A stretch of 8,159 nt of DNA, from IMG/VR virus record IMGVR_UViG_2671180710_000005. One strand, written 5' to 3'. The notes under the pieces were generated by a model, which was given only the letters and a program-made list of their open reading frames with translations, searched no databases and was not told the DNA's origin. The DNA is from a virus. Its lineage: Duplodnaviria > Heunggongvirae > Uroviricota > Caudoviricetes. Shown here one piece after another: positions 1 through 7,111 of the stretch (positions are counted from its first letter, which is position 1; each line of letters opens with the position of its first letter). The translations under genes were made by a program, and so were the position numbers.

Positions 1-25
1 TCTCCAGGATTCCCGGGGCGATTCA
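1..25 (-). mobile_element. Outermost 25 bp of a probable IS3-family insertion sequence (IS629/IS1203-like end); the IS body would lie left of the window
   Basis: Positions 1-25 (TCTCCAGGATTCCCGGGGCGATTCA) are the exact reverse complement of 8135-8159. On the minus strand it reads 5'-TGAATCGCCCCGGGAATCCTGGAGA, which begins TG and, from memory, differs by one base from the IS629 terminal repeat. Family assignment is unverified. Confidence 0.55.
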
Positions 26-28
26 GTT

Positions 29-385
29 TTAATTGTGCTTTATTCCTTCAAGCGTTGCCTTCATACCAACCAAAGAAATGTTTAGCTCTCCAACTTTCTC
101 AGGGCTATATAATTCAGAATGAAGCCAATATTCTGATTTATCTAAACATCTTTTAGCCAGCTCTCGATCAAAGTCTACGACTTGGGAAGACGCTTCATAC
201 CAAAGCCTATAAAGTTTTTCTTCTTCGTTTGGGTTATTAGGCTCACCACGTTTTAATTTTTCAGTATATAAAATTGTTGAACAAATCGCAGGAGTTAATC
301 CAGTGATTGCCCTCTGCCGCAGATCGGATTTGTTTGTTATCCACCCCAACAGACGATCTCCCATCCATGTGATAATTGTATCCAT
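29..385 (-). CDS. Hypothetical protein, 118 aa, no recognisable family
   Basis: ORF with ATG at 385-383 and TAA at 31-29. Plausible SD (AAGAAGGG) 7 nt upstream of the ATG. The stop lies 3 bp from the IS-like end. No motif recognised. Confidence 0.5.
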   Translation of the reverse strand: MDTIITWMGDRLLGWITNKSDLRQRAITGLTPAICSTILYTEKLKRGEPNNPNEEEKLYRLWYEASSQVVDFDRELAKRCLDKSEYWLHSELYSPEKVGELNISLVGMKATLEGIKHN

Positions 386-846
386 GCTTTAGCCCTTCTT
401 AGTAAATAGTGTGTAGGGCGACTGAAGGACCGAGTTTATGCTTTTTCGCATTGCTTTCAGTTAGTACACCGGTATCGCACCGGAAACAATCCTACGGCAA
501 ATTGGTTGTCTGACCTCTCGGTTTTTCGTGCATTAACCGATACCCACTACAGTCTCGGCGAAAGCTGCACACCCCCAGGGTGTACTGGTAGCACTCGGCA
601 CAGCCTAGCACGCCACTTTCTTCTCACTATCCAGTCTAATTTTATCCCCTAGTCAGACACTCAGATGTAGTGCTCCGCAGCGGCATGCGGGGGAATACAA
701 AAACTCGGACAAAATTGGGCCCTCCTTTTTGAATCACTCGCGGGGATGTAGTTATTAATACATGGAAAAAGATCTGTTTTCAAATCCAACATTATATGGT
801 TTCAATACCACGGGGTGGCTATGTGTTTCTCATTGTTAATTGGAAT

Positions 847-1170
847 CTACTGTAATCGATCCGAACGTAAATGCGGCAAAACTCGACTCCACTTATCATC
901 CTGCCACGGCCGGAATTTTACATGTGCCGTTTCTCTGGCAAGGATTGCCTGTGCCTTATTGAGTATCTGGGGATATTCTTGCTCGATAGAAGTGAAGCGA
1001 CCAGCTTCACGATGCTCCGCAACCTGAAGAAGAGGAGTAACGTTCTGGTAGGTAATTAACATCACATTCCCTGCTCGCCATAACCAGGCGAGTGTGCAAA
1101 GTTCGTTATCAGTGAATTGTTTTGTGATTGGGGATTGTTGAACTGCTAGAACGAGAACGCCAGCATCCAT
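847..1170 (-). CDS. Hypothetical protein, 107 aa, no recognisable family
   Basis: ORF with ATG at 1170-1168, preceded by AGGGA 6 nt upstream. Same strand as the flanking genes. The overlapping plus-strand ORF 815-1027 is Cys-rich and looks spurious. Confidence 0.45.
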   Translation of the reverse strand: MDAGVLVLAVQQSPITKQFTDNELCTLAWLWRAGNVMLITYQNVTPLLQVAEHREAGRFTSIEQEYPQILNKAQAILARETAHVKFRPWQDDKWSRVLPHLRSDRLQ

Positions 1171-1281
1171 TGGCAGTCCCTATAGTAAAACCATAGCTCA
1201 GGACGCTTCGTTCAGGATAGATAATTTTATTGTACTTACCTAACTTTCTTACTATAGCACGGTTGAAAAAGTGATTATTAC

Positions 1282-2808
1282 TCAAAAATAAACCTCACCA
1301 TCAACCATATATTTGAGAGCACTTATCGCCTGCTGGGCGGATATTACTTTCATTAAAGGATAGTGTTTAAAAACAATGCCATTCATAAAATAGATATCAC
1401 AGCTTTTATTATCCGTATTAATTATGATTTTTTCGAATGTTTTATAGGCAAGTGTACGGCATAACTCTCGTCCATTTTTACTGGTTAAGTCAATAGCATA
1501 AAAATCACTGAATGAATTTACACCTTTACTCTTCAAAGTTTTCAATGATACCGAAGCCCTTCTTAATTCCTTATCTAATAGTCTTATTTTCTCTGCTATA
1601 GCGGTAACTTCAGGCGCGACAGACAATGCAACGATTAAATTATTAATTTTCATCTGAAGCTCAATAATTTTTAACTCTAAAGTTTCATTAGCATCTTTCT
1701 TGTTTTCAACTGGTTGAATTTTGCTACAATTAAAAAGCAATTCATTAATGATATTATAATCAACCAAATCTCTTTTTATTGATGGCCTGTCACATCGATG
1801 TAATCTTCTCATCGGACAAACATAATAGCCATGCAAACTTCCAGATACCGCATGAACAATCATGGTATTACCACAAGCCTCACACTTCATAACTGTTCGA
1901 AGTAGATTTATTAGCATAGGATTCTTGCTACTATTGCTAATACCAAAAGGTGCCAACCGAATTTCCTGTACAGCGTAAAACAAATCATCTGATATGACTC
2001 TGGGATAATAGCCAGCGATTTCACTTATCCCTTTCCCTCTTGCACGATATGAAGGTACGCATATACCTATCAGAGCTTTATTCGCTAATAATTTTTCAAT
2101 TACAGAAGGTCCCCATGCACTTTCTTTTCCTGAGAAATTCTTTACAGCATGATCATTTAAATACTTGGCTATTGCATTCAATGAGCGCCTTTCCATCCTG
2201 AGTTTAAAAATTAGCTCAATAGTTTTCACCCTGTCGGGGTCTGGAACAAAAGCCGTTCTTTTGTCATCTAAGGAGAGCCATCTCGGACAAGACGCCGTCA
2301 TAATCGTACCTGATTCCAGTGCATCCTGCCGTTTTTTCTTCCATGATAATTTAACCCGACTTGACTTTATCTCGCTTTCTTCATTTGCCCTTTGTGCTAT
2401 AAGTATGGCTTTTATTAATGAATATGGCTCATTCAAAGAGTCAATATTATAGACTGTATTGTCGCAAAGAGTTATAACATCAATACCGTGATTCAAAATT
2501 AATTTCAGACGTTCAATCGCTTCACCGACTTTTTCTCTTGAAAGTCTGTCCAGACTTTCAACTAACAATGTAGTTCCTGGCAATATATAACCATGCTCTA
2601 TAGCATCTAAAAATTCCGAAAAAGCTCCTGATTGTGCATGCTTTCCTTTGAATGCACTTAATCCTAAATCTTCATATGTTATGGTATCAAGATAATAATC
2701 ACTATTTACCTTTAACCATTCAGCAATAAGTCTTCTCTGTCGGTTTAATGAGTCACCAGACATCTGACCTGGTGATGAAAATCGCATATATGCTATGGCT
2801 TTTTTCAT
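1282..2808 (-). CDS. ybcK: Large serine recombinase (resolvase/invertase catalytic domain plus zinc-ribbon and coiled-coil C-terminal region), 508 aa
   Basis: N-terminal AIAYMRFSSPGQ matches the serine-recombinase catalytic motif (resolvase-like xxGYxRVSTxxQ). The C-terminal part has a cysteine cluster (CEACGN...YYVCP...HRCD) typical of the large-serine-recombinase zinc ribbon. Length and position next to emrE match E. coli DLP12 ybcK as I recall it. AT-rich codon usage. Confidence 0.85.
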   Translation of the reverse strand: MKKAIAYMRFSSPGQMSGDSLNRQRRLIAEWLKVNSDYYLDTITYEDLGLSAFKGKHAQSGAFSEFLDAIEHGYILPGTTLLVESLDRLSREKVGEAIERLKLILNHGIDVITLCDNTVYNIDSLNEPYSLIKAILIAQRANEESEIKSSRVKLSWKKKRQDALESGTIMTASCPRWLSLDDKRTAFVPDPDRVKTIELIFKLRMERRSLNAIAKYLNDHAVKNFSGKESAWGPSVIEKLLANKALIGICVPSYRARGKGISEIAGYYPRVISDDLFYAVQEIRLAPFGISNSSKNPMLINLLRTVMKCEACGNTMIVHAVSGSLHGYYVCPMRRLHRCDRPSIKRDLVDYNIINELLFNCSKIQPVENKKDANETLELKIIELQMKINNLIVALSVAPEVTAIAEKIRLLDKELRRASVSLKTLKSKGVNSFSDFYAIDLTSKNGRELCRTLAYKTFEKIIINTDNKSCDIYFMNGIVFKHYPLMKVISAQQAISALKYMVDGEVYF

Positions 2809-2993
2809 GGTGACACCTGCTAACGTATGCTTTTATAAACCTTAGTGGTGGGATATAATTTTTGTTTAATTTTTATTTAAAAAAACAATTAAGGTCACAT
2901 TATCTTGAATATACAACAATAATCGTATTGCAATTTTCTTACGCCATAATCTTGAAAGCACAAAAGAACACATAAAAAAATAAAGACATTAAC

Positions 2994-3033
2994 AAAAAGC
3001 ATAAAACGAGGCTCATATAAATATAAGAGCCTC
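2994..3033 (-). terminator. Putative intrinsic terminator downstream of emrE
   Basis: 7-bp stem GAGGCTC/GAGCCTC (3008-3014 and 3027-3033) with a 12-nt AT loop. On the minus strand it is followed by a T-rich tract (GTTTTATGCTTTTT), about 30 nt after the emrE stop. Confidence 0.45.
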
Positions 3034-3064
3034 CATATTTTAGTCGTTTAGAAACAAATTATTT

Positions 3065-3397
3065 TTAATGTGGTGTGCTTCGTGACAATAGATTAATAAC
3101 CAACACACCGGCACAAATCAACATCATGCCTATAATGGCTGGCAGGTCCAGCCGTTGGCCGAAAAGTCCCCATGACAGTAAGCTAATCAGGACAATACCG
3201 ACTCCTGACCAGATAGCATAAGCAATCCCTGTAGGAATATAAGCCAGCGTCTGAGCTAATAACCAGAATGATGCACAATAACAAATAATTGTACCAACAG
3301 ATGGCCATAACCGTGTAAAACCTTCTGAAAACTTCATTAAGGTTGTACCAATGACCTCTGCAAGTATTGCACCACCAAGATAAATATAAGGGTTCAT
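3065..3397 (-). CDS. emrE: EmrE, small multidrug resistance (SMR) family efflux transporter, 110 aa
   Basis: Translation MNPYIYLGGAILAEVIGTTLMKFSEGFTRLWPSVGTIICYCASFWLLAQTLAYIPTGIAYAIWSGVGIVLISLLSWG... is near-identical to E. coli EmrE as recalled. The track ORF starts 18 codons earlier; I place the start at the MNPYIY methionine (ATG 3397-3395). Confidence 0.9.
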   Translation of the reverse strand: MNPYIYLGGAILAEVIGTTLMKFSEGFTRLWPSVGTIICYCASFWLLAQTLAYIPTGIAYAIWSGVGIVLISLLSWGLFGQRLDLPAIIGMMLICAGVLVINLLSRSTPH

Positions 3398-3464
3398 AGC
3401 ATATTCTTTCCTGTTCAAACTGGAGAGAATTGTACTACAGTTTGAACTCAACTCACCTGTTTCA

Positions 3465-3767
3465 TCATTGTGTACCCATTGATGTTCTTTTATATACCCT
3501 CAATACCCGTTTCATCGCGGCACTCTGGCGACACTCCTTAAAAATCAGATTCGTGCTCACCTTTCCTTCCCGTTCTTCTCTGGTAGCGAACCGGTAATAC
3601 ACCGTTCGCCAGACCTTACCATCAACGACCAGGATTCCTGCCCGCGCCATTTTAGCCGCAGCCTGATTTATGCTGGTTACGGTTGCGCCTGTTACCGCGG
3701 CAACGTCCTGTGCACAGAAGCTCTTATGCGTCCCCAGGTAATGAATAATTGCCTCTTTGCCCGTCAT
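3465..3767 (-). CDS. ren: Ren-like protein (lambda ren homolog), 100 aa
   Basis: MTGKEAIIHYLGTH..FCA.DVAA.TGATVTSINQAAAKMARAG...GKVWRTVYYRFATREEREGK closely matches lambda Ren as recalled. Its start codon overlaps the P stop (ATGA). Confidence 0.85.
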   Translation of the reverse strand: MTGKEAIIHYLGTHKSFCAQDVAAVTGATVTSINQAAAKMARAGILVVDGKVWRTVYYRFATREEREGKVSTNLIFKECRQSAAMKRVLRVYKRTSMGTQ

Positions 3768-4465
3768 ACACTTGCTCCTTTCAGTCCGAACTTAGCTTTA
3801 ATTTCTGCGATCTTCGCCAGAGCCTGTGCACGATTTAGAGGTCTACCGCCCATAACAGGAAGTTGTTTTACTGGTTCAGGTATCGTCTCACCACGGTTAA
3901 TTCGCGCTGTCATACAGGTCAGTTCATCGGCAGCCTTGCGCCGTAATTCCGCGTCAGTCAGCGCATTGGCCCGCATGTTCTGGTACAAGTTGGTAACCAA
4001 CCAGTAATGCGCGTTCGATTTCCACGGATAAGACTCTGCATCCGGATACAGGCCACGCTTCCGGCAATACTCGTAAACCATATCAACCAGCTCGCTGACG
4101 TTTGGCAGCCCGGCGTTAACAGATGCTTCTTCCCGGCACCAGGCGACAAACTGCCCGGGTGATGGCAGGAATGGTCGATTCTGCCGACGGGCTACGCGCA
4201 TTCCAGCGTTAACCTGTTCCATTGTGGTGATCCCGTTTTCCCGGAAAGCCAGAACCCACTGGCGGCGGATTTCGTTCAGTTCATTCTGGTCACGGTTAGC
4301 CAGGCTCGCCGGGAAAGTTGCCAGTAACTGGCTGAACACACCGTTGATGATCTGCGCTACCTGCTGTACCTGTGGCTTTTCGTCGTACTGTTCCGGCATG
4401 TTGTTGGCGATCCGGCGCATCTGCTCACAGTCAAAGTTAACCATCTGTGCGGCGATGTTTTTCAT
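3764..4465 (-). CDS. P: Lambda-type replication protein P (DnaB helicase loader), 233 aa
   Basis: MKNIAAQMVNFD.EQMRRIANNMPEQYDEKPQVQQVAQIINGVFSQLLATFPASLANRDQNE... is near-identical to lambda P along its length as recalled. Its start overlaps the O stop (ATGA at 4462-4465). Confidence 0.9.
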   Translation of the reverse strand: MKNIAAQMVNFDCEQMRRIANNMPEQYDEKPQVQQVAQIINGVFSQLLATFPASLANRDQNELNEIRRQWVLAFRENGITTMEQVNAGMRVARRQNRPFLPSPGQFVAWCREEASVNAGLPNVSELVDMVYEYCRKRGLYPDAESYPWKSNAHYWLVTNLYQNMRANALTDAELRRKAADELTCMTARINRGETIPEPVKQLPVMGGRPLNRAQALAKIAEIKAKFGLKGASV

Positions 4466-5391
4466 AGCTCCACCCCGTAAATCCAGTCAGTGTTCGTCAG
4501 GTCGAGTTTTGGTTTGCCGGCTGTCACGCCAGCCTGTTGCTTGTTTCGGTTGATTTCGAGCTGGGTCCACTTGTCGCGGAGTTTGGCCGGACTTAGCACG
4601 TTACCGGACCAGAAGTTGTCCTGGCATGCCCAGCGGAACAGCACGCACATGTCGCGGTGGTTACGTCCGTCACGTTCACGCATCAGGCGGATATCGTTAG
4701 CCCACCCTGCAAAATTCGGTTTTCTGGCTGATGGCGCGATGGTCTTCACCATGTCAAACATCCACTCTGCGGCGGTCAGGTCTTCTGCTGTCCCCCACTT
4801 GCTGCCGCTCTGAATTGCAGCATCCGGTTTCACCACAGGAAGATCGTTTTCTGGTTGGTCAGAGGATTCGCCAGAATTCTCGGACGAAAAAGGTTTTATA
4901 TTGTCTTTTGTTAGTTTGTCTTTTGTGTTTACCTGATTCGGGTAAACGCCTTTACCTGATTTGGGTAAACTTTTTTTACCTGATTCAGGTAAATTTACCT
5001 CTTTCAGGTAAACTTTATTTTTCTTACCTGATTCGGGTAATGTTGACCATTCACTGACCACATTATTAATGCCGGTATTCCGCCCGCTCTGAATAAAAAT
5101 CCCACGCTTTACCAGAACACTTTTTGCAGCAGAACACTTGTGCGGCAATATCCCGGTTAATTCGGAAAGTTGCTCGTTGCTAACCCAATCCAGTTTTTTA
5201 TTAAAGCCATATGTTTTGCGCATGACAGCCAGAAAGACCAGAAGCTGGTGCTGTGTTAATCCGGCCAGCATCACAGCTTCCAGCAACTCATTTGCAATGC
5301 GCGTATAACCATCATCGAGATCTGCCACGCGCGGCTCCTTTTGTGCCGCATCCGGCACTGGAAAATTGAATATCTCAGCAGTGTTTGCCAT
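4462..5391 (-). CDS. O: Lambda-type replication initiator O, about 309 aa
   Basis: The C-terminal ~120 aa (EWMFDMVKTIAPSARKPNFAGWANDIRLMRERDGRNHRDMCVLFRWACQDNFWSGNVLSPAKLRDKWTQLEINRNKQQAGVTA.KPKLDLTNTDWIYGV) matches lambda O; the N-terminal domain is O-like but diverged. Start placed at MANTAEIFNF (ATG 5391-5389), which aligns with the lambda O N-terminus and has a GGGAGG SD. The track ORF extends 30 codons further to 5481. Confidence 0.88.
   Translation of the reverse strand: MANTAEIFNFPVPDAAQKEPRVADLDDGYTRIANELLEAVMLAGLTQHQLLVFLAVMRKTYGFNKKLDWVSNEQLSELTGILPHKCSAAKSVLVKRGIFIQSGRNTGINNVVSEWSTLPESGKKNKVYLKEVNLPESGKKSLPKSGKGVYPNQVNTKDKLTKDNIKPFSSENSGESSDQPENDLPVVKPDAAIQSGSKWGTAEDLTAAEWMFDMVKTIAPSARKPNFAGWANDIRLMRERDGRNHRDMCVLFRWACQDNFWSGNVLSPAKLRDKWTQLEINRNKQQAGVTAGKPKLDLTNTDWIYGVEL
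4929..5042. repeat. Origin of replication iterons (ori-lambda type) inside the O gene, with adjacent AT-rich region
   Basis: Five roughly 19-bp palindromic iterons of the form TTACCTGATTCGGGTAAAC start at 4929, 4952, 4976, 4995 and 5024. An AT-rich stretch lies at about 4885-4928, downstream in the O reading direction, as in the lambda ori. Confidence 0.8.
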
Positions 5392-5477
5392 AATTCCTCC
5401 CGCAATGAGTGTGTTACGATTTGCACCTGAAAGTCGGTTCTGTTCCAGCAGACCGGCTTTCGCCATTTCTGAACCTG

Positions 5478-6017
5478 TCATATCGCCCCCAGCATGGTAG
5501 TAACCATCGCCATCAATGGACCAGCCAGATCTGGGTCCACACGAAACATCGACACAATACCTTCACTAATTTCCTTCAGTTTCTGGTGGCGTGGTGCGTT
5601 GAGAATGACAGCCTGTTTTGCCTCACTGAGTTCCTTTTCCATTTCAGCCAACCTAGCCATGAAGCTATCCTGCTCAACCAGGTAACCGCGATATTCCAGC
5701 GGTAGTACCGCCAGAATTGCCGGGGTCAGTTCACGCACGTTATTTCGGTATTTTTCAGAATCGAATTTGTTATCGAGGAAGCGGAACAGCTTCTGGCGTG
5801 CACGGCTGACATCATCAGGGAAATCGATGGTGCCGCCGCCCTGCTCCCGATACTCATTCACAATGAGTGTGGCAACGACATCCTGATTATCTACAGCCGA
5901 CCAGGCGCGGACGGCATCACGGATTTTTTCGTGGCCTGGCACCTGTTTTGTTTGAGAACGATTTATCACCGCAGTCGGGCTAAATCCGCTAGTCTGTTGG
6001 TATGTAAGTGGTTGCAT
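5478..6017 (-). CDS. 179-aa protein in the cII position; possibly YdaT-family (CII functional analogue of Rac/CP-933P-type prophages)
   Basis: Sits between cro and O where lambda has cII, but is about twice the size of lambda CII and unlike it. Segments EYREQGGG and LTPAILAVLPLEYR resemble what I recall of YdaT; this is unverified. Strong SD (AAAGGAG) upstream of ATG 6017-6015. Confidence 0.6.
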   Translation of the reverse strand: MQPLTYQQTSGFSPTAVINRSQTKQVPGHEKIRDAVRAWSAVDNQDVVATLIVNEYREQGGGTIDFPDDVSRARQKLFRFLDNKFDSEKYRNNVRELTPAILAVLPLEYRGYLVEQDSFMARLAEMEKELSEAKQAVILNAPRHQKLKEISEGIVSMFRVDPDLAGPLMAMVTTMLGAI

Positions 6018-6086: not shown

Positions 6087-6317
6087 TTAAGCTGCGTTCT
6101 TTTCGGTGTGTGGAAACAACTTCGGAAGATCCGGGCGAATCTGGTATGCCTTCACTACTCCACCAGTAGCCGTAACAATGCTGCCGACATGTTCAGGGGA
6201 TACCTTTGCTTTGTTGTGAAGCCACTTATAGACGGCCTGCTGTGAAACTTCGCAAGCAGCGCCCAGTTTCTTTTGTGAACCAACGATATTGATCGCTGTT
6301 TTGATAGCTGGGTTCAT
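6087..6317 (-). CDS. cro: Cro-like HTH repressor (P22 Cro / YdaS-like), 76 aa
   Basis: A 76-aa protein divergent from cI across the operator region. Its pattern (GSQKKLGAACEVSQQAVYKWL...VTATGG) parallels the P22 Cro HTH. GGAGG SD 5 nt upstream of ATG 6317-6315. Confidence 0.75.
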   Translation of the reverse strand: MNPAIKTAINIVGSQKKLGAACEVSQQAVYKWLHNKAKVSPEHVGSIVTATGGVVKAYQIRPDLPKLFPHTEKNAA

Positions 6318-6330
6318 AACAACCTCCGTG

Positions 6331-6421
6331 GTTAATTTGAATCAAGATTAAAACTATGGTTGTTTTTAGTTAACAACCATTTTCGTTTGATGAAATAAAA
6401 CCTTGGTTGTACATTTGGACT
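6331..6421. promoter_or_regulatory. OR region: operators with divergent pR (toward cro) and pRM (toward cI)
   Basis: 25-bp palindrome ATGGTTGTT-N7-AACAACCAT at 6356-6380 and a further GGTTGT half-site at about 6401-6413. Candidate pR on the minus strand: -35 TTGTTA, -10 TTTAAT. Candidate pRM on the plus strand: -35 TTGATG (6387-6392), -10 TACATT (6410-6415), placing the start near the cI ATG (leaderless, as in lambda). Confidence 0.6.
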
Positions 6422-7111
6422 ATGAAAACAACACTCTCAGAAAGACTTAAAGAAGCCAGATTAGCGCGAGGCCTTACACAAAAGGCGCTTGGGGATTTGG
6501 TCGGGGTTAGCCAGGCTGCTATTCAGAAAATCGAAACAGGGAAAGCTAATCAAACAACTAAAATCGTGGAGATCGCGAACGCTTTGGGTGTGCGCGCAGA
6601 ATGGTTATCTTCTGGCGTTGGAAATATGTCAGACAGTACAGTGCAACCAATACAATCAACTGTCAGCCATTCCAAATACTTCAAGATTGACGTTCTTGAT
6701 ATAGAAGTCAGTGCTGGGCCGGGAGTCATCAACCGTGAGTTTGTAGAAGTTCTACGCTCGGTTGAGTACTCGTTTGACGATGCTCGTCACATGTTCGATG
6801 GTAGGAAGGCGGAAAATATCCGCATCATTAACGTGCGTGGTGACAGCATGTCAGGAACGATCGAACCAGGTGATCTGCTGTTCGTTGATATCACAGTTAA
6901 ATCTTTCGACGGTGATGGTATCTATGCGTTTCTGTACGACGACACAGCCCATGTAAAGCGCCTGCAAATGATGAAGGATAAGCTGCTGGTCATCTCTGAT
7001 AACAAAAGCTACTCACCGTGGGACCCGATCGAGAAAGACGAGATGAACCGGGTGTTCATCTTCGGTAAGGTTATTGGGAGCATGCCGCAGACATATAGGA
7101 AGCATGGGTAG
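6422..7111 (+). CDS. cI: CI-type phage repressor (N-terminal XRE-family HTH, C-terminal S24/LexA-like autopeptidase domain), about 229 aa
   Basis: The N-terminus (LSERLKEARLARGLTQKALGDLVGVSQAAIQKIETGK) is a classic HTH. An Ala-Gly cleavage site (EVSAGPG), a Ser in RGDSMSGTI and a Lys in HVKRLQ match the LexA/CI autocleavage module. Start set at ATG 6422; the track ORF begins at an upstream TTG at 6407. Confidence 0.9.
   Translation: MKTTLSERLKEARLARGLTQKALGDLVGVSQAAIQKIETGKANQTTKIVEIANALGVRAEWLSSGVGNMSDSTVQPIQSTVSHSKYFKIDVLDIEVSAGPGVINREFVEVLRSVEYSFDDARHMFDGRKAENIRIINVRGDSMSGTIEPGDLLFVDITVKSFDGDGIYAFLYDDTAHVKRLQMMKDKLLVISDNKSYSPWDPIEKDEMNRVFIFGKVIGSMPQTYRKHG

Follow-up and report, generated by a model that had tools for sequence, protein, structure and literature searches.

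The emrE-ybcK segment of DLP12-type prophages comprises two modules, one with a complete and apparently orphan large serine recombinase

The DNA examined here, an 8,159-nt stretch of a tailed-phage genome (IMG/VR record IMGVR_UViG_2671180710_000005; hereafter the window), carries the genes emrE and ybcK behind the replication module of a lambdoid phage. The reading that we favour, with a probability of roughly 60%, is that these genes make up a two-module segment of a DLP12-type prophage in which YbcK is a complete second recombinase maintained by selection, an orphan that lies inside the prophage in a fixed place and orientation, with no recognisable sites and no excision or inversion polymorphism. 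The gene pair itself is an ordinary feature, already known and already annotated. The features of the region are collected in Table 1.

Table 1. Features of the emrE-ybcK segment and its flanks (window coordinates)
Feature	Coordinates	Strand	Description
Unknown ORF	29..385	-	118 aa, 38% GC; flanking material
Truncated antirepressor (Rha/Ant-type)	847..1170	-	only the P22AR C-terminal domain remains (PF10548, 1.1e-15)
Junction stretch	1158..1242	.	separates the antirepressor remnant from the ybcK module
Post-ybcK stretch	1243..1281	-	39 nt past the stop codon; alignable to K-12 at only about 70% identity
ybcK	1282..2808	-	complete large serine recombinase (LSR), 508 aa/codons
ybcK leader	2809..3056	-	AT-rich, 27% GC; upstream edge at 3056/3057, where the 2,083-bp indel seen against emrE-ybcL genomes has its border
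ylcJ	2866..3016	-	small hydrophobic ORF; frameshifted pseudogene in the identical record, intact in K-12
GC-rich hairpin	3008..3034	-	GGAGGCTC...GAGCCTC, then a T-rich tail; inside the comparison-defined ybcK module
emrE	3065..3397	-	110 aa from the annotated ATG; SMR proton/drug antiporter; phage accessory gene (moron)
ren	3465..3767	-	closes the replication module; right-hand border of the segment; named 'protein ren' in the identical record

The window was found to be 100% identical to NZ_CP045712.1, where it is part of a DLP12-like prophage that is integrated at argU and encodes a tyrosine integrase of its own, IntD. The gene content of this chromosomal record (intD, tRNA-Arg, cI, cro, O, P, ren, emrE, ybcK, ybcN-quuD, lysis and head genes), with its lambdoid order, its integration at argU by IntD and the emrE-ybcK pair after ren, is that of a DLP12-type lambdoid E. 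coli prophage, and the emrE-ylcJ-ybcK accessory segment of this prophage spans window 1158-3491. In K-12 DLP12 the same genes follow ren in the same order and orientation, with 98.7% nucleotide identity over window 1243-3678, in agreement with the original prediction, which placed the pair after the replication module as in K-12. The two prophages differ: that of the window, with cI, cro, O, P, ren, lysis and head genes, is essentially complete, whereas in the K-12 DLP12 remnant ren is interrupted by an IS. ylcJ is frameshifted in the window but intact in K-12. The isolated phages Perceval, 4A7, PhiR70_1 and Turner have the same segment, together with tyrosine Int and Xis.

The segment differs clearly from its surroundings in composition, as had been anticipated from the AT-richness of its two genes. 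Window 1158-3491 has a GC content of 35.6%, compared to 47.7% for the rest of the window, a contrast of about 10 standard errors by a two-proportion estimate. The values are 35.4% for ybcK, 27.0% for the leader (2809-3064) and 42.0% for emrE, against 50.5% for ren, 53.3% for P and 48.5% for O, and GC3, at 0.50-0.59 in ren, P and O, is only 0.28 and 0.35 in the two segment genes. The emrE start and the ren stop are 67 nt apart, placing emrE directly after ren.

To locate the borders, the lambdoid phages SfI, PhiR5_1 and IdasGreatGrand, which lack the segment, were used for comparison. On the right, homology to all three stops at 3492-3522, in the last codons of ren; on the left, homology to IdasGreatGrand and PhiR5_1 ends at window 1157, giving a border at 1157/1158 that falls within the antirepressor gene. 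PhiR5_1 has a full-length 249-aa Rha gene at the corresponding position, and the remnant in the window is flanking material, not recombinase cargo. The 118-aa ORF beyond it gave no match in Pfam, NCBIfam or PADLOC and is also present in phages Turner and IdasGreatGrand. The interval 29-1170 consists of this ORF and the antirepressor remnant, and the Rfam scan of the window returned no match; the idea that it represents cargo with an RNA-like region was thus not supported. In K-12, ybcL and ybcM lie downstream of ybcK in place of these two features, and beyond 1243 the window lineage and the K-12 lineage are unrelated.

Could emrE and ybcK together form a single mobile island, put after ren by the serine recombinase and still able to excise or move? 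A composition shift starting exactly after ren, the lack of the segment in island-less lambdoid phages and the position of YbcK relatives on the margin of islands by which hofB is cleanly split would all fit this. However, emrE-ybcL-ybcM occurs without ybcK in about 2,627 of 5,426 genomes, and the difference between K-12 and these genomes is a 2,083-bp stretch with ylcJ and ybcK, making ybcK a separate indel. Furthermore, the left border lies in the middle of a gene rather than at a clean site, flanking repeats and a common core were not found, and no empty-site or positional polymorphism was seen in the 5,426 genomes and 80 viral contigs. A single island is thus unlikely, and the original prediction of one inserted unit did not hold: the segment is two adjacent modules, emrE being the first and the AT-rich leader plus ybcK (window about 1243-3056) the second. 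Module 2 is present in the DLP12 lineage and missing from the related remnant that carries emrE-ybcL-ybcM at the fliE locus, all fliE-type matches beginning at window 3057/3058. The flanks of the 2,083-bp indel are 8-10% diverged and its junctions show no clear core sequence. In the survey of 5,426 genomes, ybcK was never found without emrE.

We then considered whether the recombinase leaves traces of activity around it. The order and orientation of P-ren-emrE-leader-ybcK are constant in the 80 viral-contig loci and about 1,400 genomes. No inversion was detected among the 80 loci, in which every flanking gene keeps the same orientation, and no K-12-type empty site was detected at 95% identity or above in the 5,426 genomes. 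A chimeric K-12 empty-site query for excision footprints retrieved nothing but the old fliE-type arrangement, already diverged, and 12 recombinants (HH45 among them). These loci and genomes thus give no indication that the recombinase moves or inverts adjacent cargo, as had been proposed. The ybcK-ybcN interval falls into at least nine length classes, which represent two lineages, deletions and one 1.33-kb IS; this accounts for the variation downstream of ybcK, and cassette exchange was rejected. A break 59 nt upstream of ybcK in strain c1-17 was likewise attributed to an IS1-mediated deletion.

YbcK has the domain organization of an integrase-type LSR. Pfam identified Resolvase (PF00239, 5.4e-19), Recombinase (PF07508, 2.3e-14) and Zn_ribbon_recom (PF13408, 7.9e-8) domains, and the catalytic motifs YMRFSSPGQ and ESLDRLSR are present. 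R9, S11, Q15, D87, R88 and R91, as well as the zinc-ribbon residues C309, C312, C331 and C339, do not vary among 20 homologues and the 80 loci. The original prediction of an intact 508-aa recombinase with its catalytic Ser and Arg residues is thus confirmed, R9, S11, D87, R88 and R91 all being in place with no inactivating mutation. A single-sequence search of solved structures with YbcK gave no match, whereas a profile search matched the A118 integrase C-terminal domain (9e-16) and also the SPbeta integrase. The AlphaFold2 model (mean pLDDT 80) predicts a coiled coil at residues 368-427, formed by antiparallel helices 368-397 and 402-427, and the top Foldseek matches of this model were the SPbeta SprA, PhiC31, Bxb1 and A118 integrases (E 1e-18 to 1e-10; full-length for the first three). 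With SprA, PhiC31, Bxb1 and A118/LI integrases, YbcK has in common the Ser catalytic domain, the long alpha-E helix, the recombinase domain, the four-Cys zinc ribbon and the coiled coil, at a sequence identity of only 13-20%. By sequence and predicted fold, YbcK has all the features of an active LSR. NCBIfam also returned a weak match to XisF, the fdxN-element excision recombinase (1.8e-12); its 46.9 bits are far below the cut-off of 375, and membership of that family was rejected.

Where YbcK departs from phage serine integrases is in the location of its gene. Such integrase genes lie beside the attachment site, at one end of the integrated element, whereas ybcK occupies an internal position, with ren/emrE on one side and the nin genes on the other, in the window as in the 80 viral-contig loci. 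The prophage end is formed by intD beside argU, and the phage encodes a tyrosine Int and Xis in addition. Our literature search found no report of demonstrated recombination by YbcK. No site, partner site or recombination product of YbcK was found, and its catalytic role in E. coli is inferred only from sequence, fold and selection. The sole reported phenotype is sabinene tolerance upon ybcK overexpression (PMC7181518), which does not point to recombination. PADLOC gave no match for ybcK, emrE, ren or the two flanking ORFs, and a place in anti-phage defence was not indicated.

The stretch between emrE and ybcK was inspected for elements that might control the recombinase. The GC-rich hairpin at its upstream end is, judging by its sequence, probably the emrE terminator; it is the top dyad of the leader (13/18 matches), and a simple terminator scan did not flag it. 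In K-12, the untranslated ybcK leader is reported to contain a Rho/NusG-dependent terminator (PMC4150792). In a lysogen, this Rho-dependent terminator would hold ybcK largely silent. As ybcK is co-directional with the cro-O-P-ren-nin-Q unit, its orientation suggests that it would be made when N-antiterminated early transcription reads through, upon infection or induction. By analogy with the hofB-island relatives described below, YbcK may then perform conservative recombination between two specific sites of about 40-50 bp. The ylcJ product was rejected as a directionality factor, since it is a hydrophobic peptide and a difference in the length of a T-run breaks the ORF in 32 of 78 loci.

The internal position of ybcK in a prophage with another integrase, the failure to find its sites and the Rho silencing in K-12 might also be read as signs of a fossil integrase drifting towards a pseudogene. 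The selection data contradict this. A dN/dS of about 0.08 was obtained from 39 synonymous and 12 non-synonymous differences, and values of 0.08-0.2 were obtained across all allele pairs; 79 of 80 copies are intact, with the catalytic and zinc-binding residues unchanged. Moreover, the gene is kept in phages that still plate and lysogenise, and the family persists at 40-60% identity across Enterobacterales. A dead relic is consequently very improbable, and ybcK is kept by purifying selection, as these sequence comparisons indicate. Selection of this strength on a gene that never relocates implies a benefit to phage or host.

The cognate sites of LSRs are pairs of 40-50 bp with imperfect dyad symmetry and a common central dinucleotide. 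Searches for direct and inverted repeats in window 1-4000 and in the K-12 locus (L005, 1500-6500) yielded only short, chance-level matches. In the leader, the best dyad score of 13/18 was reached by 27% of shuffles, and the other dyad, at 12/18, was AT-rich. Repeat and dyad scans around the ybcK module detected neither terminal repeats nor target duplications, inspection by eye of the flanks of 21 family members revealed no conserved motif, and a displaced ren fragment, of the sort seen in some relatives, was not found at the far end of the segment. The search for att-like repeats, with nothing above chance, thus agrees with the original observation that no sites could be seen by eye.

These data also bear on the idea that YbcK is a DNA invertase that switches the expression of adjacent genes. 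Small serine invertases (Pin/Gin/Hin) are proteins of about 190 aa with a C-terminal helix-turn-helix, and they act on a segment bounded by inverted repeats. YbcK belongs to the same serine recombinase superfamily, and the K-12 cryptic prophages provide a precedent with their active invertases PinQ and PinR (PMC12529663). Yet at 508 aa, with the catalytic domain, zinc ribbon and coiled coil of an LSR, with no inverted repeats above chance and with flanking genes in the same orientation in 80 of 80 loci, YbcK falls outside the Pin/Gin/Hin group, and we consider this function extremely improbable.

We looked for relatives of YbcK in other genera. Recombinases of the same family and domain content, 36-39% identical to YbcK, were found in four genera (Mixta, Serratia, Leclercia, Rahnella; L032-L035), each at the margin of an island of 7-10 kb. 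These islands cleanly split hofB between codons 310 and 311, so that HofB residues 1-310 and 311-461 flank them, which is consistent with integration by their LSR. An imperfectly dyad-symmetric candidate attP is located about 50 nt upstream of the recombinase gene, and the arrangement of site to gene may be comparable in ybcK. The island recombinases have a C-terminal extension of about 35 aa, unlike YbcK, and the window, unlike the hofB islands, has no split target gene; the cargo of one island (L033) comprises two AbiTii proteins and a small resolvase. Other relatives, 41-61% identical, occupy prophage ends and nin regions or are plasmid-borne. When closely related recombinase genes (83-96% nucleotide identity) were compared across genera, homology ended 12-220 nt before the ORF and 0-113 nt after it, in differing surroundings. 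Four relatives have, on their flanks, incomplete and diverged second copies of the gene that they interrupt (DUF1367, P, a pilV-like gene and DUF2280).

This distribution raises the question of whether the ybcK module, leader and gene (about 1.8-2.1 kb), is itself a mobile, IS-like unit driven by its single LSR gene and hopping between phages, plasmids and islands. TnpX (Tn4451), TndX (Tn5397) and CcrAB (SCCmec) are LSRs that mobilise small elements and not entire phages. The 2,083-bp indel between emrE and ybcL, the homology ending near the ORF and the four duplicated target genes speak for such a unit. In E. coli, however, the module occupies one position only, and terminal sites, a circular form and multiple insertion sites, as expected by comparison with the TnpX, TndX and CcrAB elements, could not be demonstrated for it, nor were terminal repeats or target duplications found. 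The borders are inconsistent, varying with the comparison in Atlantibacter (-120, -209, -342), and the end of homology at the ORF may only mean that non-coding DNA decays faster. In addition, the K-12-type downstream end of the module has been replaced in the window 39 nt past the ybcK stop, so self-movement of the module is unlikely here. We regard a self-mobile module as doubtful. A tentative extension, of low probability, is that YbcK and its Enterobacterales relatives might constitute a clade of compact LSR modules whose targets are conserved phage, plasmid and chromosomal genes and which bring along small cargo and, in some cases, a substitute for the part of the gene that they interrupt; the E. 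coli copy would then be an active second recombinase of DLP12-type phages, on only in lytic transcription and acting on an unrecognised site. Candidate targets in such a clade are hofB, lambdoid P, the DUF1367 nin gene and a small-terminase-like gene.

The other module, emrE, encodes an SMR efflux pump. EmrE/SMR transporters are proteins of about 110 aa with four transmembrane helices and an essential Glu14. The emrE product matches PF00893 (SMR family, 4.8e-35) and the curated model NF042984 (SMR_efflux_EmrE; 239.6 bits, cut-off 226), and Glu is found at position 14 of MNPYIYLGGAILAEV... Compared with the fliE-locus allele, emrE has a dN/dS of 0.02. The end coordinate 3451 given earlier belongs to a longer ORF that begins at an upstream TTG, not to the annotated ATG start.

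EmrE is among the best-studied small transporters, and its gene is usually carried on a phage or phage remnant, which explains its patchy, two-locus distribution in E. coli. The second module offers a rare case, in the most-studied bacterium, of a complete and selected recombinase for which no recombination site was recognised. If the sites of YbcK are found, they could add a new Gram-negative serine integrase for genome engineering and could reveal what a lambdoid phage gains from a second recombinase.

YbcK is an intact integrase-type large serine recombinase (LSR), maintained by selection and fixed at one position in DLP12-type phages. Its gene had been described in the original prediction as part of an AT-rich island with emrE after ren, as in the cryptic K-12 prophage DLP12. 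This description was correct: K-12 DLP12 matched window 1243-3678 at 98.7% identity, and both genes showed a real shift in GC and GC3 relative to the phage core (table). The minus strand carries every window gene from cro leftwards. E. coli FHI_NMBU_11 (NZ_CP045712.1) contains window 1-3800 at 100% identity, within an almost complete lambdoid prophage whose end carries intD beside tRNA-Arg (argU) and which is annotated with ren, emrE, ylcJ (frameshifted) and ybcK. A few matches were on plasmids (12 places with window 1-3800, one with the island itself).

Features of the window and of the compared loci (L numbers)
Feature	Coordinates	Strand	GC (%)	GC3
cI	6407-7111	divergent from minus-strand genes		
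cro	6087-6317	-		
YdaT-domain protein gene (cII position)	5478-6017	-		
O	4462-5481	-	48.5	0.50
P	3764-4465	-	53.3	0.59
ren	3465-3767	-	50.5	0.53
emrE	3065-3397	-	42.0	0.35
ybcK leader	2809-3064		27.0	n/a
ybcK	1282-2808	-	35.4	0.28
Truncated antirepressor ORF	847-1170	-		
118-aa ORF	29-385	-		
hofB island, L033	9949-17238			
hofB islands, L032, L034, L035 (coordinates of L035)	9949 to ~20100			
Bracketing copies, L013	9623-9851 vs 12609-12831			
Bracketing copies, L041	9281-9657 vs 12216-12592			
Bracketing copies, L014	9013-9332 vs 12970-13291			
Bracketing copies, L043	9273-9519 vs 16149-16394			

The protein encoded at the cII position is not a lambda-type CII: it is 179 aa long and carries a YdaT toxin-like domain (Pfam 8.5e-30). 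Searches of Pfam, NCBIfam and PADLOC returned nothing for the 118-aa ORF, which is AT-rich (38% GC) and conserved in phages Turner and IdasGreatGrand. Most related records begin to match the window only at position 26; the source genome has an IS3-family element (L001 10758-11971) directly left of the window, separating the 118-aa ORF from the nin genes.

Comparison with the island-less lambdoid phages SfI, Stx1a phages, PhiR5_1 and IdasGreatGrand delimited an accessory segment at 1158-3491. Its right border falls within the final ren codons, with Ren C-termini remaining similar across it, and its left border interrupts a Rha/antirepressor gene of which the P22AR C-terminal domain is the sole remnant. 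Sequence comparison indicates that this segment is composite. Of 5,426 complete E. coli genomes, 2,627 have an emrE gene (~92% identical) directly beside ybcL-ybcM and no ybcK there; this locus belongs to another lambdoid remnant, in the yedK-fliE interval (L004 5290-6342). A ybcK gene without emrE was never found. The K-12 DLP12 order, emrE-ylcJ-ybcK-ybcL-ybcM, differs from this fliE-type arrangement by 2,083 bp (L005 3701-5783), comprising a 247-nt leader with ylcJ, ybcK and 309 nt downstream. The upstream edge of this stretch corresponds to window 3056/3057, which is 8 nt downstream of the emrE stop codon, and the hairpin at 3008-3034, probably the emrE terminator, falls inside it. Comparison of its junctions revealed no duplication and no convincing common core. 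Strain HH45 carries a mosaic at the fliE-type locus (L097 3787-5646), with K-12-like genes on both sides of a fliE-type junction, implying recombination between the two emrE loci. The 49-aa hydrophobic ORF ylcJ (2866-3016) starts within the emrE hairpin; a T-run that differs by one base shifts its frame in the window and likewise in 32 of 78 related loci.

Nothing in the recombinase itself suggested inactivation. Pfam identified all three LSR domains, and R9, S11, Q15, D87, R88, R91 and four zinc-ribbon cysteines were invariant across 20 aligned homologues, with identities as low as 28%. Among 80 E. coli-type loci on viral contigs, the 508-codon ORF was intact in 79 and the catalytic and zinc-ribbon residues were kept in all. 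The window and phage 4A7 alleles differ by 39 synonymous and 12 non-synonymous changes (dN/dS 0.08), and every other allele pair gave 0.08-0.2. A profile of the family gave matches to the A118 and SPbeta integrases. An AlphaFold2 model (mean pLDDT 80) contains a catalytic domain, a long alpha-E helix, a recombinase domain, a zinc ribbon and a coiled coil (368-427); its top structural matches are the full-length SPbeta SprA, PhiC31, Bxb1 and A118 integrases. The inactivating Ser/Arg mutations named in the original prediction as a refutation are therefore absent, and YbcK has the structural characters of an LSR. Its LSR domains, together with the lack of above-chance repeats, ruled out a small invertase; PADLOC did not identify it as a defence protein.

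The further proposal that the LSR could move or invert its neighbours was not borne out in E. coli. The order P-ren-emrE-leader-ybcK was invariant across the 80 viral-contig loci, with no orientation variants of the genes flanking ybcK. At least nine lengths of the ybcK-ybcN interval occur, and all trace back to two old lineages, one having ybcL-ybcM and the other an antirepressor remnant, accompanied or not by an esterase or the 118-aa ORF; internal deletions and a single 1.33-kb IS account for the remaining variation. An identical 1,333-bp IS lies 51 nt downstream of the ybcK stop in one prophage (L182) and inside the ybcL-side spacer of another prophage (L134). A synthetic K-12 "empty site" query had no match at ≥95% identity in the 5,426 genomes, and repeat and dyad searches around ybcK gave nothing above chance. 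An IS1 deletion explained the one apparent break, located 59 nt upstream of ybcK. The segment also occurs in isolated, viable phages. Phage Perceval encodes a "large serine recombinase, YbcK homolog" alongside its own tyrosine integrase with excisionase, so YbcK is not the phage's integrase. YbcK lacks the position typical of an LSR because it is not at an element end.

YbcK homologues were found across Enterobacterales. One subgroup (36-39% identical, ~541 aa; Mixta, Serratia, Leclercia, Rahnella) lies at one edge of a 7-10 kb island that interrupts hofB, a gene of the ppdD-hofB-hofC operon, after codon 310 (GHLVL|STLHTN), leaving HofB residues 1-310 and 311-461 on opposite sides. The crossover point precedes the recombinase start codon by ~52 nt, and the reconstructed attP, ATAAGAGATGTGTAGT-CCTA-ATTACAACTCTCTAAT, is imperfectly dyad-symmetric. 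Since hofB is split clean, we infer that these islands were integrated by their LSR. The island end bears a decayed copy of the hofB sequence following the crossover, and the recombinase gene is 91-96% identical between the four genera. The Serratia island carries two AbiTii proteins and a small resolvase.

Closer relatives (41-61% identical, ~508 aa) occupy several settings: prophage ends after a tail-fibre assembly gene, the nin region of Pantoea and Atlantibacter lambdoid prophages having a tyrosine integrase, and plasmids. In an Atlantibacter prophage (L006 9530-10432), the final gene is a 59% identical relative, placed after the tail-fibre assembly gene and pointing to the ssrA 3' end, 540 nt off; a tyrosine integrase usually takes this position. 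On either side of four relatives lie direct partial copies, 68-84% identical, of the interrupted gene (a DUF1367 nin gene, lambda P, a pilV-like gene and a DUF2280 gene), as if an element had inserted into a gene, bringing a replacement part. Close relatives in different surroundings share homology that begins no more than 12-220 nt before the ORF and ends 0-113 nt after it. Both this and the diverged duplicates would allow, though not prove, that the relatives are compact mobile modules, since border positions differ and decay is faster in non-coding flanks than in the ORF. Pantoea-type relatives (L016, L030, L205-L208) share 85-91% DNA identity in unrelated surroundings, with homology that extends beyond the ORF by just 12-34 nt upstream and 0-3 nt downstream. 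In the window, sequence downstream of ybcK aligned with K-12 over 39 nt only (~70% identity) and was unrelated beyond; with the K-12-type downstream end missing, self-movement of a ybcK module here is unlikely.

Expression of ybcK may be conditional. In K-12, the untranslated region upstream of ybcK contains a Rho/NusG-dependent terminator that keeps its mRNA low (PMC4150792), and ybcK overexpression raises sabinene tolerance (PMC7181518); we found no report of recombination activity in the literature on YbcK. Because ybcK runs in the same direction as cro-O-P-ren and the nin-Q genes, it should be reached during infection or induction by antiterminated early transcripts that read through the emrE hairpin and Rho terminator; the resulting YbcK might then recombine two specific sites. 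The feature itself is the known emrE-ylcJ-ybcK region of DLP12, so annotated in RefSeq and phage records. Three observations from outside the window may merit study in their own right: the history of emrE at its two loci, the hofB islands, and the recombinase modules with partial gene copies on either side.
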